Below, piece by piece: positions 20,733 to 27,295 of a DNA stretch of 64,000 nucleotides. The position numbers and the translations under genes were made by a program. The notes beneath the pieces are model-generated. The model searched no databases. It was not told the DNA's origin and saw only the letters and a program-made list of their open reading frames with translations. The DNA comes from a phage. The DNA lies in the sequence record PX880100.1. One strand, 5' to 3'. Each line of letters begins with the position of its first letter. Position 1 is the first letter of the stretch.

Positions 20733-20804
20733 GCCGTCCTAGTATAATTGGTATTATCAAGCCGTAACTGGTGGAAGATGTAGGTTCGAATCCTACGGTC
20801 GGTA
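20733..20804 (+). ncRNA. tRNA-like element (canonical T-arm, anticodon arm unresolved)
   Basis: GTAGG-TTCGAAT-CCTAC T-arm and 6/7 acceptor pairing; no clean anticodon stem. Confidence 0.3.
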
Positions 20805-21415: not shown

Positions 21416-22363
21416 ATGTTTAATACTAAAAATATGAAAGAACTGACTTCTGAGCAGAAAGTAATTCGTACTATTAAACGTTGGGGGATTGGTGCTGTAG
21501 TTGGTTTAGCAGGTTTAGTTCTAGCTCTTAACTCCTATACCGTTGTTCAAGACGGTACTGTTAAGACCCAGACTTTCTTGGGTAAAGTTGATCCTAATCC
21601 AGTATTACCTGGTTTCCATGTTGTAAATCCTTTTGCTTCTTTTGATACTTTTAGTACTAAAGATATTGCTCTAAAATTAGATAAACTTCAGGTTCCTAGT
21701 CAGGATAAGTTTAAATCCACTGTTGACCTGACTGTTATGTTGCAGTTTGATGGTTCTAAAGCACCGATTAACCGTATTAATGCAGGTAATCAGGATCAAG
21801 CGTTAGACAAATATGTAACTGAAAAATTACTGTCTACTATTCGTGAGTTTGGTAAGTCTGTACCTAAAGCACAAGATTTATTTGATGCTAAAATTCAGGC
21901 TCAATTGCAAACTGCAATTCAACAGGAAGTTGAAGAGTATGCACGCCCATATGGTTACACAGTTAAGCAGGTGTTCCTTCAGGATATTACTTTGCCACCG
22001 GTAATCATGGAACAGGTACAGAATACCAAAGTTCGTGAAGAACAGGTTAATGCTGCTAAAGCTGAATTAGCTCGTGTTGAACAGGAAGCACAGCAAAAAG
22101 TTAAACAAGCAGAAGCAGATCGTGAAGCTCGCAACAACCAAGCTATTGCTAATGAACGTGACGCAGATGCTAAACTGTACGCAGCTAAGAAAGAAGCTGA
22201 AGCTAACGCCGCATTGCAACGTACCATTACTCCTGAGATGATTCGCTGGAAGCAACTGGAAGTTGAAATGATCCGTGCTCAGAAGTATCAAGGTGGTGTA
22301 CCACAGACGGTAGTTGGTACTGGTTATGATGGCCAAATGATCATGGATATGCGTAATAAATAA
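21416..22363 (+). CDS. SPFH/band-7 domain membrane protein (prohibitin/HflC-like)
   Basis: N-terminal TM helix; SPFH-like core; long coiled-coil C-terminus. Confidence 0.6.
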   Translation: MFNTKNMKELTSEQKVIRTIKRWGIGAVVGLAGLVLALNSYTVVQDGTVKTQTFLGKVDPNPVLPGFHVVNPFASFDTFSTKDIALKLDKLQVPSQDKFKSTVDLTVMLQFDGSKAPINRINAGNQDQALDKYVTEKLLSTIREFGKSVPKAQDLFDAKIQAQLQTAIQQEVEEYARPYGYTVKQVFLQDITLPPVIMEQVQNTKVREEQVNAAKAELARVEQEAQQKVKQAEADREARNNQAIANERDADAKLYAAKKEAEANAALQRTITPEMIRWKQLEVEMIRAQKYQGGVPQTVVGTGYDGQMIMDMRNK

Positions 22364-22387
22364 TACCCGCATGTAACATCTGAAGTA

Positions 22388-22421
22388 AGCCCTGCGTTTC
22401 CTGGAGAGCGCAGGGCTTTTC
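22388..22421 (+). terminator. Rho-independent terminator
   Basis: AAGCCCTGCG...CGCAGGGCTT hairpin then TTTT. Confidence 0.6.
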
Positions 22422-22459
22422 TATATAATGTAATTATAAAACTAACTAGGAGATTAAAC

Positions 22460-22978
22460 ATGGGTGTTGATGAATTAACACAGCATCTTCTATCTAGAGG
22501 ATTTGATGCAGATAAATATCATTGCTGGTTAAGTCCGGAAGGATGGCTAACAGTCCCGTTGTATGATTTCTCTGGGATGTTGAGGGGCTATCAAACTTAT
22601 AATCCTTCTGCTCCAAAAGGTCATGGTAAGTATCCCTTTGAAGCTAAATATTTTACCTATTCTACTACCCAGTGTGTATGGGGATTAGAAACTCTCAATG
22701 GAGATGAAAAAGTAGTATTGATCGCTGAATCTGTATTTAAGGCAGTTGCGTTACATAACGCTGGTTATCCAGCCCTAGCAATGTTGGGTTCTTCTCCAGG
22801 AAAAGCGTTATTAAAGCAACTGAAATTATTACCTTTTAAATTGGTAGCTGTCGGGGATAACGATCCTGCGGGTGAAAAATTTGCTAGAAAATTAAACGGC
22901 TTTGTTTCTCCTGTAGATGTGGATGAGATGTCTACCGAAAACTTGAAAAATTTTCTTGCTATGAAGCTAAATTTCTAA
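22460..22978 (+). CDS. hypothetical protein, possible Toprim-like fold
   Basis: IAES and GDNDPAG acidic motifs resemble Toprim. Confidence 0.4.
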   Translation: MGVDELTQHLLSRGFDADKYHCWLSPEGWLTVPLYDFSGMLRGYQTYNPSAPKGHGKYPFEAKYFTYSTTQCVWGLETLNGDEKVVLIAESVFKAVALHNAGYPALAMLGSSPGKALLKQLKLLPFKLVAVGDNDPAGEKFARKLNGFVSPVDVDEMSTENLKNFLAMKLNF

Positions 22979-22999
22979 TATAATATATCTTATAAATTC

Positions 23000-23088
23000 G
23001 GAAGAATAGCATAACGGTATTGCAGCAGATTGCTAATCTGTCGGTTTGAAATATAGCCTTGTGGGTTCGATTCCCACTTCTTCCGCCA
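23000..23088 (+). tRNA. tRNA-Ser (anticodon GCU), long variable arm
   Basis: Perfect acceptor stem; T-arm GTGGG-TTCGATT-CCCAC; encoded CCA. Confidence 0.7.
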
Positions 23089-23094
23089 AATTCT

Positions 23095-23172
23095 GGTTCT
23101 CAAGCTCATATGGTATGAGCACCCAGCTCATAACTGGAAGGTACGTAGGTTCGAATCCTCGGGGAGCCACCA
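23095..23172 (+). tRNA. tRNA with CAU anticodon (Met/fMet/Ile2)
   Basis: Acceptor GGTTCTC/GGGAGCC; anticodon loop CTCATAA; weak T-stem. Confidence 0.5.
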
Positions 23173-23390
23173 ACTTAATTAGGGGATTACAAGTGGAATT
23201 ATACATAGTTTATGTTGTGTTTATTCAAGATAGAGAATACCCTGATGAATATAAAAAAGGATATAGGTTAGCCAGAGCTACCTCTGAAGTCCAAGCTATG
23301 GATAAAGTGGCAGATTATATGATTACGGTAGAAAACGTACACTATATCGACTACCTTGAGGCCTCAAAAGTAATTGACTAAGGAGACTAT

Positions 23391-23576
23391 ATGTCCAAGT
23401 TTCAAGAACTCAAGCAAGAGCTAGAAGAATGTGCCTGCCCTGAGTGTAGGGGAATTGGTGAAAGTTCTGATGCAGAAGCAGGAGATACTTTTTGCAATAT
23501 CTGGGTTTGCCCAAATTGCAATGGTACAGGTATTAATCCTAACTGTGGTATTTCTCTAGATATTGAAAGAGGGTAA
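23391..23576 (+). CDS. small zinc-ribbon protein
   Basis: CPECRG...CPNCNG paired CxxC. Confidence 0.45.
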   Translation: MSKFQELKQELEECACPECRGIGESSDAEAGDTFCNIWVCPNCNGTGINPNCGISLDIERG

Positions 23577-23677
23577 TATCTGTGAAACTAAAAGATTATT
23601 ATATTGGTTGGTTTGTGGGACTAGTAGTAGGATTTTCACTAGGCTATAATATGTATCAACTAATAAACTGATTACAC

Positions 23678-23754
23678 GGGGGTGTAATCGAATTGGCATA
23701 GGTACTGGACTTAAAATTCAGGTTTTGTGGGTTCGAATCCCACCACCCCTACCA
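23678..23754 (+). tRNA. tRNA, anticodon UAA (Leu-type) with short variable arm
   Basis: Acceptor GGGGGTG/CACCCCT; T-arm GTGGG-TTCGAAT-CCCAC; loop CTTAAAA. Confidence 0.5.
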
Positions 23755-23769
23755 AATTAAGGAAATAAG

Positions 23770-23937
23770 ATGTATAGACCTCCACCTCCGCCAACACGTC
23801 GTTCTAGAGAAGTTATCCTCATGGAATTGACTAAAAACTTCAAGGCAACTCTTGAAGATAGAGATTTAGGCACGGATGAAGACATTGATTTTATTTGTAG
23901 ACTATTAAAGATGAAACTGGAGAAACAACATGGCTAA
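23770..23937 (+). CDS. hypothetical small proline-rich protein (55 aa)
   Basis: Hand-translated; AAGGAAA upstream; stop overlaps next ATG. Confidence 0.4.
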   Translation: MYRPPPPPTRRSREVILMELTKNFKATLEDRDLGTDEDIDFICRLLKMKLEKQHG

Positions 23938-24136
23938 TCCTGAAATTACCGCACAACGTTTCATGCTTAAAGGCATGATTGCTGAAGCAGGTATGACTCA
24001 AGAGGTTGCAGACTTTCATAAGCAAATTCTTGATATTATAACTCTAGCTAAAGAGACTGGAGAAAAAGAGCACGCAGCAGCAATTATGGCTATATCTCTT
24101 ATTAGTCTAGACTTGGCTGAAGAATCTGGAGTTTAG
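23930..24136 (+). CDS. hypothetical protein
   Basis: ORF track. Confidence 0.4.
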   Translation: MANPEITAQRFMLKGMIAEAGMTQEVADFHKQILDIITLAKETGEKEHAAAIMAISLISLDLAEESGV

Positions 24137-24226
24137 CTCCTCCAAATAGAATTTTTAAAAATGTACTTGCCTTTTGCTTTAAATTTCTGATATAATAGTT
24201 ATATAAATTGATGAAGGAGTTAACTA

Positions 24227-24502
24227 ATGCAAAATCGTGTTATAGCAACTGGTATTGAAAGTGCAATCTGTAAATCCTGGGAAGGCTGGGAAGGTGAGAT
24301 TGAATGGCTTTATTTCTATGATGTAGAACTTCTGCCGGAAGTTAAAGCTAAATGTGTTGAAGCTGGAATGGCTCCAGATGCAAAAGCTGATATTGATATT
24401 TCAATGTCTGAACTTAAAGGCCGTGTAATTACTGTTAGTGATGAGGGTGAAGAAGTTTTCGAACTTCCATTCTCCTTAACTGTCACTCCTAAGTTCGACT
24501 AA
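24227..24502 (+). CDS. hypothetical protein
   Basis: ORF track; promoter cassette and AAGGAG upstream. Confidence 0.45.
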   Translation: MQNRVIATGIESAICKSWEGWEGEIEWLYFYDVELLPEVKAKCVEAGMAPDAKADIDISMSELKGRVITVSDEGEEVFELPFSLTVTPKFD

Positions 24503-24584
24503 CTAATACAGCACTGAGCAAGTTCTTTAAAATTTGACTTGCTCAGTGCCTTAAAACTTGGTATAATAGTTATCTAATTTGGAA

Positions 24585-24634
24585 ACATATTTAAAAGTGT
24601 TTAAACTAGTATTTGAATACTTTTAAATATGTTG
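24585..24634. repeat. perfect palindrome, 15-bp arms (AACATATTTAAAAGT / ACTTTTAAATATGTT)
   Basis: Read directly; between promoter and tRNA-Tyr. Confidence 0.8.
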
Positions 24635-24735
24635 GATTAGTATCGTAGAGGTAGCGAAGCAGACTGTAAATCTGCCGACTCGGAAGGGTCTCGGGTGGTT
24701 CGACTCCATCATCCATCATCCATCATCCAACACCA
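24631..24735 (+). tRNA. tRNA-Tyr (anticodon GUA) with 14-nt heptamer expansion before the 3' acceptor strand
   Basis: Anticodon stem GCAGA/TCTGC; T-arm GGTGG-TTCGACT-CCATC; ATCCATC x2 inserted before ATCCAAC-A-CCA. Confidence 0.5.
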
Positions 24736-24742
24736 AATTTAA

Positions 24743-24819
24743 GTCCTGTTAGACAAACTGGTAAAGTCACTACCCTTTCAAGGTAGGATTTGCGGGTTCG
24801 ATCCCCGCACAGGACGCCA
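24743..24819 (+). tRNA. tRNA-Glu (anticodon UUC)
   Basis: Perfect acceptor and anticodon stems; T-arm GCGGG-TTCGATC-CCCGC; CCA. Confidence 0.7.
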
Positions 24820-24827
24820 ATTTCTGC

Positions 24828-24904
24828 ATTCCTAGAGTGTTACTGGACAGCATGTCGGTCTCCAAAATCGTACGGTCTAGGTTCGAGTCCTAGTAGGTTT
24901 GCCA
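24828..24904 (+). tRNA. tRNA-Trp (anticodon CCA)
   Basis: T-arm CTAGG-TTCGAGT-CCTAG; loop CTCCAAA; acceptor has two U-U mismatches. Confidence 0.5.
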
Positions 24905-24910
24905 AAATTT

Positions 24911-24985
24911 GCACCTTTAGCTGAGATGGATTAGCGCTTGCCTGAAGAGCTTGAGAGGTTCGTTCGATACGAACAGGGTGCACCA
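24911..24985 (+). tRNA. tRNA-Phe (anticodon GAA)
   Basis: Acceptor GCACCTT/AGGGTGC; T-arm GTTCG-TTCGATA-CGAAC; anticodon stem imperfect. Confidence 0.5.
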
Positions 24986-25002
24986 AATTGAGGGGGCTGC
25001 TG

Positions 25003-25275
25003 ATGCATCCTGAAAACTTCTTTATTTACTGCGCTGATAAGTCGCTGAAACGTAGAATTAACAAAGTCTATCATTATCGTGCTAGTCAACAGCCTTATGT
25101 ATATGCTTTTGACGGTGATCACATTCCATTAGAACAATTATCTTGTGATTACATGATATTGAAGAACTTTGACGAGACAAAGATCTCAAGCGTTCATAAT
25201 CGACAGAATCCCTTAACGTGGAAATATAAGAAGAAAAAGAAAGGCATCAAATTCTTAAAAAATGTAGTTGCTTAG
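25003..25275 (+). CDS. hypothetical protein
   Basis: Track ORF trimmed to first ATG after GAGGGGG, clear of tRNA-Phe. Confidence 0.4.
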   Translation: MHPENFFIYCADKSLKRRINKVYHYRASQQPYVYAFDGDHIPLEQLSCDYMILKNFDETKISSVHNRQNPLTWKYKKKKKGIKFLKNVVA

Positions 25276-25307
25276 TTTCCAAAAGTTCTGTATAATAATT
25301 ACATAAA

Positions 25308-25550
25308 TTGAACTGGAGAAGCAACATGACAGAACAAGAATTGAATGAACGTAAGCTGGTAATGCTCCGCTTACTAAACATTTTCTCTGGTATGGATGGG
25401 GGTATTGACTTTGTTCATCTACGTTCTTTTGTAGAAGAAGCAGAAGGTGAATCTATCACTAAAATCCTTAAACATATGGGTTTACTATTAGATGCTGCTG
25501 GTGTAGCAACGGAATATAACCTCGAAGATCTACCGGAGCGTATTAAATGA
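25308..25550 (+). CDS. hypothetical protein
   Basis: ORF track; promoter cassette and GGAGAAG upstream. Confidence 0.45.
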   Translation: MNWRSNMTEQELNERKLVMLRLLNIFSGMDGGIDFVHLRSFVEEAEGESITKILKHMGLLLDAAGVATEYNLEDLPERIK

Positions 25551-25735
25551 AGAAGCCAAAAGCTAAATTAGTTAAGTTCGACTGTTGTGACACAGAAATC
25601 TTATTCACTAAGTTTGGTGAATTTAAGATGTGTGAATGTGGAACATGTGGTTATGATCATGGTGATGGATATTATTGCAGGACTCTTGGACCAGCAAATC
25701 TAATCCACTTTTCATGGCCGGAAGATAAAGAATAA
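25547..25735 (+). CDS. small Cys-rich protein
   Basis: CC..., CECGTCGYDHGDGYYC; overlapping start. Confidence 0.4.
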   Translation: MKKPKAKLVKFDCCDTEILFTKFGEFKMCECGTCGYDHGDGYYCRTLGPANLIHFSWPEDKE

Positions 25736-25737
25736 TT

Positions 25738-25812
25738 GCATCCTTGTCCGAGTGGCTTAGGTGACGGTCTGCAAAATCGTCTAGGTTGGTTCAATTCCAG
25801 CAGGGTGCTCCA
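25738..25812 (+). tRNA. tRNA-Cys (anticodon GCA)
   Basis: Acceptor GCATCCT/AGGGTGC; loop CTGCAAA; T-arm GTTGG-TTCAATT-CCAGC; weak D-stem. Confidence 0.55.
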
Positions 25813-25818
25813 AATTCA

Positions 25819-25901
25819 GGGTCGTTAGCCAAGCGGTTTGGCGGTGGACTGTTAATCCATGTCGAAAGACAACGTAGGTTCGAATCCTACACGGCCCGCC
25901 A
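25819..25901 (+). tRNA. tRNA, anticodon GUU (Asn-type) with 13-nt variable arm
   Basis: Good D-stem and anticodon stem; T-arm GTAGG-TTCGAAT-CCTAC; CCA. Confidence 0.55.
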
Positions 25902-26003
25902 AATTCTGTGTAGAGTTAAGTAAACCGGTAGCCAACCAGCTATCATTGCTGACATCGAATTCAGCCACAGATACCATTTTCATTAATAACTGAGGAAACA
26001 AGC

Positions 26004-26189
26004 ATGTCCAAGAATGTAATTGCGCAGCTAGAAGTTCATCGTGATAGCACTATCAACAATATTGAAGTTGAGAAGAAATACATCGAAGAACTTAAACATG
26101 ATATACTAGTAAGTCTCAACCGTCTTAATGTACGAAAAGAGTTTCTTAAAGAACTTAATGCAGCTATTGAAAAACTCAAAGCTGAGTAA
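26004..26189 (+). CDS. hypothetical protein
   Basis: ORF track; GAGGAAA upstream. Confidence 0.4.
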   Translation: MSKNVIAQLEVHRDSTINNIEVEKKYIEELKHDILVSLNRLNVRKEFLKELNAAIEKLKAE

Positions 26190-26198
26190 ATGAATTAT

Positions 26199-26275
26199 GC
26201 GACCGGGGCTGGCTTGGTAATGGTACTCCCCTGTCACGGGAGGGAATGTGGGTTCAAATCCCATCGGTCGCGCCA
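26199..26275 (+). tRNA. tRNA-Asp (anticodon GUC)
   Basis: Perfect acceptor and anticodon stems; T-loop TTCAAAT; CCA. Confidence 0.7.
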
Positions 26276-26292
26276 AATAAGGTAGGTTAGCT

Positions 26293-26451
26293 ATGGAACG
26301 TAGAGAGTTTACTCCAGAAGAGATAGAGCAGATAAAAGAATCTGCTACGAAAAATGCTAGAATATCTCTGTCACTAGAAGGTATCATTATTAGTGATGTA
26401 AACTTTGAAAAAATCAAAGCCATAGCTGATGAACTGGAAAAAGTAATTTAA
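26293..26451 (+). CDS. hypothetical small protein (52 aa)
   Basis: Hand-translated between tRNA-Asp and tRNA-Lys. Confidence 0.35.
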   Translation: MERREFTPEEIEQIKESATKNARISLSLEGIIISDVNFEKIKAIADELEKVI

Positions 26452-26452
26452 T

Positions 26453-26528
26453 ACATCCATAGCTCAATGGTTAGAGCTACCGCCTCTTAAGCGGAGGGTT
26501 CTAGGTTCAAGTCCTAGTGGGTGTACCA
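26453..26528 (+). tRNA. tRNA-Lys (anticodon CUU)
   Basis: Canonical D-arm TAGCTCAATGGTTAGAGC; T-arm CTAGG-TTCAAGT-CCTAG; CCA. Confidence 0.7.
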
Positions 26529-26554
26529 AACTAAACTAGCACGAGAAATATACT

Positions 26555-26902
26555 ATGCGTAATGCTAAAGAAGAGTTGTTACTTGCCTTAAAAAATACTA
26601 ATTCTGAAGTTAAGTGTATTAAAATAGAATTCGGGTATTATGGGGACAAAAAAGTTTGGGTATTACCTCTGGGGTATACAGAAGAAGATATTGGGGATTT
26701 TCTTAATAACCTAGACTTTGAGTATGATTCTGGTTATGGTGGACAACTACTTTATGGTAATGTATGGTTTGCCGATGGAACCTGGCTAGAACGTGGGGAA
26801 TATGATGGAGCTGAGTGGTGGGAATACAAGGCTACTCCAGCAATTCCAGAGGAATGCCGAACAATTAATGGTGAAGTAGATAATACTTTAAGGTTAAACT
26901 AA
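26555..26902 (+). CDS. hypothetical protein
   Basis: ORF track. Confidence 0.45.
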   Translation: MRNAKEELLLALKNTNSEVKCIKIEFGYYGDKKVWVLPLGYTEEDIGDFLNNLDFEYDSGYGGQLLYGNVWFADGTWLERGEYDGAEWWEYKATPAIPEECRTINGEVDNTLRLN

Positions 26903-27295
26903 TAAAATTTCAGTGCAGAACACGGAGCTAGCAATTCGGAAGTGCTGACTCATGATAAGCTGCCTATGTACTTGCAAAGCGGTCGTGTCCAAGACTCGGA
27001 CTCTTGCACTGAAAACAATCAAACATTCTAGCGTGGTTGATGGGGAAACCAGCTTGGCTAGGGCAGAAGCTCGTTCGATTCGAGTGAAAGAATGGTTCTC
27101 GTAAGTCCGCACAAGTGATAATAGGTTCGAGTCCTGTCTAGAATGACACTATAAAGTTTACTTATTATGTAGGTTCCGATAGATCGGCGGGTCTATTCTG
27201 GCATTTAAGAGAGGTCTCGCAAACTTCTTTGTCAGCCGTGGGGTTGGTAGCCTCCAGGTGGCCTACACAATAAGTAAATTTATTAAAAATTCATT

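Follow-up and report, generated by a model that had tools for sequence, protein, structure and literature searches.

The closest described counterpart of the locus analysed here is the tRNA-Tyr gene of phage SP15 (PhitRNA-Tyr_SP15; AP019559), which counteracts a bacterial retron. The retron-Eco7 effector PtuAB depletes host tRNA-Tyr, and T5-like phages lacking a tRNA-rich region of about 8 kb are rescued from retron-Eco7 by the SP15 tRNA-Tyr, a rescue that is abolished by an anticodon change or by stem-loop mutations in the tRNA (Azam et al., Nat Commun 2024, PMC11555353). The promoter of the SP15 gene is exceptionally strong, the tRNA-rich region has been lost spontaneously in the viable T5n and SP15m, and another SP15 gene, ORF75, is a determinant for the evasion of both retron-Eco2 and retron-Eco7 by T5-like phages (PMC11555353). 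Deletions in the tRNA region of T5 are likewise described as non-essential (PMC11464382).

The tRNA-Tyr genes of T5 and BF23 (AY734508, NC_042564) resemble the gene studied here in their locus, their T arm (GGTGGTTCGACTCCATC), the anticodon GUA, the long variable arm and an unusual spacing before the D stem, but they represent a different, 88-nt allele with the acceptor stem GGGGGAG/CTCCCCT and another D arm, anticodon stem and variable arm. With CTCCCCT as the acceptor 3' strand, this allele lacks the CCATCATCC micro-repeat, and hence any substrate for the slippage discussed below. A preliminary sequence-only reading of the locus had proposed tRNA-Tyr of T5-like phages as the comparison; T5 itself proves to be the wrong partner, since its acceptor stem differs, and the allele shared by SP15 and AKFV33 is the right reference.

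The window, a 64,000-nt stretch of a phage genome (PX880100.1), has as its nearest record Escherichia phage vB_EcoS_AKFV33 (Tequintavirus). Because the identity to AKFV33 reaches 99.2% over window positions 22000-27000 but only 92-98% elsewhere, the window derives from a distinct T5-like phage of the genus Tequintavirus. Its tRNA-Tyr gene belongs to a T5-type cluster with 24 tRNA genes in the region and agrees with the SP15 gene at 91 of 91 bases once 14 inserted bases are removed. The same allele is held by AKFV33, T5_ev219 and more than 100 other Tequintavirus genomes, and the SP15-type locus shares with the window its position 3' of a 91-aa ORF and 7 nt upstream of the genes for tRNA-Glu, tRNA-Trp and tRNA-Phe, as well as the promoter hexamers. 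In the window, unlike in the SP15 allele, 14 additional bases part the T stem from the acceptor 3' strand, and the native T stem is lost in the predicted fold (Table 1).

Table 1. Coordinates of the tRNA-Tyr gene, its parts and neighbouring features in the window.
Feature	Coordinates	Strand	Sequence or description	Basis
Promoter of the tRNA-Tyr/Glu/Trp/Phe cluster	24539-24568	+	-35 TTGCTC 24539-24544, 17-nt spacer, -10 TATAAT 24562-24567	homology
tRNA-Tyr (GUA) gene	24631-24735	+	105 nt: 91-nt SP15/AKFV33-type allele plus 14-nt insertion	sequence, 16-relative alignment, SP15 identity
Acceptor 5' strand	24631-24637	+	GTTGGAT	sequence
Unusual 5-nt connector, 5' of the D arm	24638-24642	+	TAGTA	sequence
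D arm	24643-24657	+	TCG / loop TAGAGGTAG / CGA	sequence, RNAfold structure, Rfam alignment
Anticodon arm	24659-24675	+	GCAGA-CTGTAAA-TCTGC, anticodon GTA at 24666-24668	sequence, ARAGORN
Long variable arm	24677-24690	+	GACTC-GGAA-GGGTC, 5-bp stem, GNRA-type tetraloop	sequence, ARAGORN, folding
Native T arm	24694-24710	+	GGTGG-TTCGACT-CCATC	sequence
Competing helix (predicted), replacing the native T stem	24693-24714	+	GGGTGGT 24693-24699 / ATCATCC 24708-24714	ViennaRNA minimum free energy structure
Perfect period-7 tandem array	24705-24729	+	unit TCCATCA, 3.6 copies	Tandem Repeats Finder, 100% matches
Inserted 14 bases	24711-24724	+	2 x ATCCATC	single 14-nt gap against AKFV33 and all other relatives
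Acceptor 3' strand, discriminator and encoded CCA	24725-24735	+	ATCCAAC, A, CCA	sequence
Downstream tRNA-Glu, tRNA-Trp and tRNA-Phe	24743-24985	+	7 nt past the tRNA-Tyr CCA	unchanged against relatives
172-aa ORF	22460-22978	+	98% identical to SP15 E0157_075 (ORF75)	sequence identity

Direct reading of the window bears out to the base the earlier report that the heptamer ATCCATC has been inserted twice. The T-stem 3' strand CCATC (24706-24710) is followed by ATCCATC (24711-24717), a second ATCCATC (24718-24724), ATCCAAC (24725-24731), A (24732) and CCA (24733-24735); the placement of the insertion is a matter of convention, as any 14-nt frame inside the array is equivalent. The resulting array is the sole perfect short tandem array in the window, and the 14-mer ATCCATCATCCATC, with at most one mismatch allowed, finds three overlapping matches there against 0.02 expected by chance. 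A location inside a coding region was ruled out, as no ORF of at least 50 aa overlaps the array.

Most features of a bacterial-type tRNA-Tyr are present in the gene. The anticodon loop has seven bases, including U33, the GUA anticodon and A37, on a 5-bp stem; the variable arm is long and paired; and the discriminator A73 (A24732) precedes an encoded CCA (24733-24735). The T arm is present in sequence, with a 5-bp stem and a TTCGAnT loop, although folding of the window allele gives its stem a pairing probability of only about 0.03. The 5' acceptor strand GTTGGAT is the perfect complement of ATCCAAC at 24725-24731 and can form six of seven pairs with either ATCCATC copy. What the gene lacks is the direct junction of the T stem with a 7-bp acceptor strand, a contiguity present in all relatives examined: 14 bases split CCATC from ATCCAAC, and the heptamer that is contiguous with the T stem offers only six of seven acceptor pairs and has no CCA after it.

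The sequence-only reading had described the gene as folding canonically, a description that is only partly right, given the 5-nt connector and the D arm, which is weak even without the insertion. Instead of a two-base connector and a D stem of 3-4 bp, five bases precede the sole good D stem (TCG/CGA), and the D stem assigned by ARAGORN in one-copy relatives has only two good pairs. These oddities of the D arm are a family trait and not a defect, because the SP15 allele works in vivo; the functional one-copy allele departs from the usual connector and D stem in the same way, so that the departure implies no loss of function in the window. The Rfam tRNA model (RF00005) matches the gene at 24634-24715 with 32.6 bits, above the gathering score of 29 and the lowest of 24 regional tRNA hits, and its alignment prefers GGAUUAG as the 5' acceptor strand, leaving three acceptor positions unpaired.

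Across T5-family tRNA-Tyr alleles (window 24638-24657 and loci L002, L015, L016 and L018), three to five bases rather than two separate the acceptor stem from the D stem. The T5/BF23, KPP2018/NBSal005 and EC122/IME178 alleles even reach slightly higher scores under the Rfam tRNA-Sec model than under the general one, at 28.6-34.9 bits for the T5-, KPP2018- and EC122-type alleles, which is under the tRNA-Sec gathering score of 47. A longer, tRNA-Sec-like acceptor stem was considered for the window allele and rejected, as the complementary bases are not present. The unusual D-arm geometry of T5-family tRNA-Tyr may be linked to resistance against tRNA-targeting nucleases.

Outside the window, the gene was seen with a single heptamer only. 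In all relatives with the allele it spans 91 nt and reads GTTGGAT...CCATC-ATCCAAC-A-CCA. A gapped pattern accepting 0-30 extra bases at the junction found the zero-gap form alone in 10 of 10 IMG/VR contigs and in all three metagenome contigs, and three further SP15-type assembly contigs are single-heptamer as well. In GenBank, where 172 phage records match, the 60 best and 60 evenly spaced rows were sampled (about 100 records), and every span among them is exactly 14 nt shorter than the query. A pattern for at least two heptamers matched no contig in IMG/VR; its lone match in bacterial and archaeal genomes was rejected as chance, since the site, in a metagenome-assembled genome, is an unrelated low-complexity stretch and has no tRNA close by. 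An exact look-up of the neighbouring 91-aa protein, which is widespread, gave 10 contigs; with 98-99% identity to the window at best, none of them is the window genome, and the SP15-type contigs among these 10 have one heptamer each.

Alignment of 16 loci shows the 91 tRNA bases to be 100% identical in all of them, including two (L009 and L013) in which the upstream flank is heavily diverged. This invariance even beside a diverged flank indicates, as judged from the alignment, that the one-copy form either is kept by purifying selection or has recently spread as a module; with no variation among the 16 loci, covariation support was obtainable for none of the pairing registers. In the alignment with AKFV33, 5.2 kb contain no indel besides the 14-nt gap, and across the 10.9-kb tRNA region all other length differences are paired single-base shifts, so that no second multi-base indel occurs there. 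The sequence-only reading had named a single heptamer in related genomes as the observation that would count against it. All relatives examined do show one, yet the insertion itself stands, and the expanded allele is private to this genome, a restriction compatible with a recent mutation as well as with an artefact, both of which that reading had raised.

In two further loci, L025 (ERZ27278378 k141_18412) and L031 (GCA_047588565.1), the 91-aa ORF is separated from the downstream genes by a 181-aa gene with a T5orf172/MUG113 domain, a putative homing-type endonuclease, and the T-arm motif of the SP15-type tRNA-Tyr allele was not found in either. This arrangement suggests that mobile-element traffic may reshape the tRNA-Tyr locus.

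The architecture of the insertion is consistent with replication slippage, as the sequence-only reading had proposed. In relatives, the meeting of the T-stem 3' strand CCATC with the acceptor 3' strand ATCCAAC already creates the micro-repeat TCCATCATCCA, which amounts to 1.6 copies of the unit with TCCA repeated at a spacing of 7, and the window holds 3.6 perfect head-to-tail copies at the same place. The window thus shares with microsatellite-type slippage mutations its perfect head-to-tail copies, a prior partial repeat and a length change that is an exact multiple of the unit. In contrast to recurrent contingency loci, however, the array shows no copy-number polymorphism among relatives, all of which are in the one-copy state, and in contrast to frameshifting microsatellite slippage it lies in an RNA gene, where its effect would be structural. 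The proposal of slippage is therefore supported by the perfect copies on a pre-existing partial repeat, as slippage requires, but not by any variation in copy number. No intermediate with two heptamers (+7) occurs in any relative examined, which implies that both steps were recent in this lineage or that the expansion is an artefact, and two successive slips starting from a 4-nt repeat are in themselves somewhat unlikely.

With three heptamers present, the 5' acceptor strand has three possible partners and the T stem can pair with any of three CCAUC segments; ViennaRNA ranks the resulting folds as follows. The cloverleaf that uses the first heptamer has a canonical geometry with a U2-U71 mismatch and no CCA (-21.6 kcal/mol). 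The cloverleaf that combines the third heptamer with the native T stem has a perfect acceptor stem followed by ACCA, and a 14-nt unpaired insert (-25.5 kcal/mol). The minimum free energy structure (-29.8 kcal/mol) retains the third-heptamer acceptor register, uses a 4-bp D stem and has a shifted 7-bp helix in place of the native T stem, a displacement that becomes possible when the acceptor stem no longer binds the first heptamer. Under this nearest-neighbour model, which ignores tertiary contacts, base modifications and co-transcriptional folding and charges nothing for unpaired multiloop bases, the native T stem has an ensemble probability of about 0.92 with one heptamer but of about 0.03 with the three of the window; the values for the shifted helix and for most of the third-heptamer acceptor helix are about 0.62 and about 0.99, the latter dropping to about 0.8 at the innermost pair. 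Inclusion of the leader and trailer leaves the ensemble results unchanged.

The sequence-only reading had allowed that a predictor might find a canonical fold it had missed. ARAGORN does return an alternative fold, of 84 nt at 24635-24718, which closes on the first heptamer and contains two acceptor-stem mismatches; the Rfam tRNA model gives 32.6 bits to both the window allele and the one-copy allele, so that the predictors do not rank the expanded gene any lower. Among the three outcomes that had been left side by side, namely an inactivated tRNA, maturation from an unusual precursor and an alternative acceptor pairing, the folding predictions favour a misfolded and probably inactive product. 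The likely form of this product, according to the model, is a 105-nt RNA in which the acceptor end is normal, the junction of T stem and acceptor is broken and the T arm is misfolded.

Taken together with the phage biology described above, we consider it modestly probable that the window carries a slippage mutation that inactivates a dispensable anti-defence tRNA-Tyr. The wild-type allele is a strongly transcribed tRNA-Tyr that refills the pool depleted by the retron-Eco7 effector PtuAB. Slipped-strand mispairing at TCCATCATCCA would have added a first heptamer, and the lengthened repeat would have slipped once more to gain the second. In the transcript of the expanded gene, the 5' acceptor strand would pair perfectly with the third copy, with ACCA after it, and the processed RNA would be 105 nt long and look normal at its acceptor end. 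The insertion would interrupt the path from T stem to acceptor strand, and the freed AUCC would let the shifted 7-bp helix oust the native T stem. With the L-shape lost, charging, EF-Tu binding and ribosomal decoding would probably be lost too, and the window allele is, on these folding predictions, most likely null or severely weakened. The loss would be tolerated in that the phage can do without the tRNA region in the laboratory, obtains tRNA-Tyr from its host and keeps the ORF75 homologue; through this homologue the phage may be resistant to the retron even if its tRNA-Tyr is dead.

A sequencing or assembly artefact, in which the phage DNA has a single heptamer and the extra units are read or consensus errors introduced, for example, by long-read consensus or polishing, is rather unlikely in our estimation. 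It would account for an expansion seen in no other record or contig examined and for the missing two-heptamer intermediate, and neither reads nor a second assembly of this genome turned up in the collections searched, where two window proteins used as probes, of 315 aa and 172 aa, have no exact match on record. On the other hand, an array of 25 nt is far below read and k-mer length and creates no assembly ambiguity, the flanks are clean against AKFV33 (no other indel in 5.2 kb and only paired single-base shifts over 10.9 kb), and the window, with no other perfect short tandem array, shows no pattern of repeat inflation. Because the array is so short and the surrounding sequence so clean, a real mutation seems to us likelier than an artefact.

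If the insertion is real, the tRNA could in principle work through the first heptamer (24711-24717), with the U2-U71 mismatch and A24718 as the discriminator. Host nucleases would trim the trailer UCCAUCAUCCAACACCA and the CCA-adding enzyme would rebuild the CCA, giving a 91-nt tRNA one base off the wild type. E. coli is able to process precursors of phage T4 tRNAs in which no CCA is encoded. The first heptamer lies directly 3' of the T stem and makes six of seven acceptor pairs, both ARAGORN and the Rfam model place the 3' end there, and, being transcribed first, it could pair co-transcriptionally. We nevertheless hold this register to be improbable, as it lies 4 kcal/mol above the third-heptamer register and 8 kcal/mol above the minimum free energy structure, its ensemble probability is close to 0, the perfect third-copy stem with ACCA is the expected stop for 3' exonucleases, and A24718 is followed by UCC rather than CCA.

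That the expanded gene is real and yields any working product, either this 91-nt tRNA-Tyr (A71U) or a stable 105-nt tRNA-like RNA that counters retron-Eco7 PtuAB or Septu, seems to us decidedly doubtful; were it the case, the window would hold a natural bacterial-type tRNA that tolerates or exploits a 14-nt insertion at the junction of T stem and acceptor stem. A real insertion that was also selected, as a decoy or non-cleavable competitor for nucleases that target tRNA-Tyr or as relief from the cost of tRNA-Tyr overexpression, would suit a gene behind a promoter reported to be very strong and a tRNA known to be targeted by both Septu and the retron-Eco7 effector PtuAB, but it is extremely improbable, as the allele occurs in a single genome with no sign of selection and a pure decoy conflicts with the loss of rescue upon anticodon change, from which Azam et al. 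conclude that the decoding function is required (PMC11555353).

The inactivating slippage mutation that we favour would leave a mutated version of a phage tRNA that is already known and has been characterised by experiment, and in any event the expansion is an ordinary private mutation or an artefact and not a new element. If the insertion is real, the window holds a natural allele that probably lacks anti-retron-Eco7 activity while the strong promoter and the ORF75 homologue are kept. Such a phage would be predicted to escape retron-Eco7 via ORF75 alone, and the cloned 105-nt allele to fail in rescuing mutants that have lost the tRNA region. The case also calls for caution in annotation: a tRNA-Tyr is still predicted at this place by ARAGORN, with its 84-nt fold, and by Rfam, with 32.6 bits, so that the gene would be counted as intact though it probably is not.

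The promoter in the window is homologous to one annotated in AKFV33 (locus L014, positions 2540-2569), and both of its hexamers, with their 17-nt spacing, are identical to those in AKFV33 and to those upstream of the SP15 tRNA-Tyr, the gene for which the exceptional promoter strength was reported. A simple sigma-70 scan did not report this promoter, the T5-type -35 element TTGCTC agreeing with TTGACA at three of six positions; because the scan missed this element, the promoter is called by homology to AKFV33 and SP15. Since tRNA-Glu, tRNA-Trp and tRNA-Phe have no annotated promoter of their own, we infer that they are co-transcribed with tRNA-Tyr.

Two inverted repeats lie near the promoter and the start of the gene. 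A perfect 13-nt repeat (24511-24523 / 24537-24549) follows the end of the 91-aa ORF, its 3' arm overlapping the -35 TTGCTC of the tRNA promoter, and the same arms are readable in SP15. A 22-nt repeat with 91% complementarity occupies the tRNA-Tyr leader (24584-24605 / 24612-24633), where its 3' arm overlaps the first three tRNA bases (GTT), so that the upper end of the acceptor stem could face competition from a leader hairpin. AKFV33 differs at three positions of this 3' arm and the flank is heavily diverged in L009 and L013; judged from these comparisons, conservation of the 22-nt repeat is unlikely.

Elsewhere in the region, the Rfam tRNA model reports two hits on the + strand that are absent from the ARAGORN calls. 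One, at 20733-20804, scores 35.5 bits, above the gathering score. The other, at 23095-23169, scores 38.2 bits and lies directly 3' of tRNA-Ser; its counterpart in AKFV33 is annotated as tRNA-Met (tRNAscan-SE).
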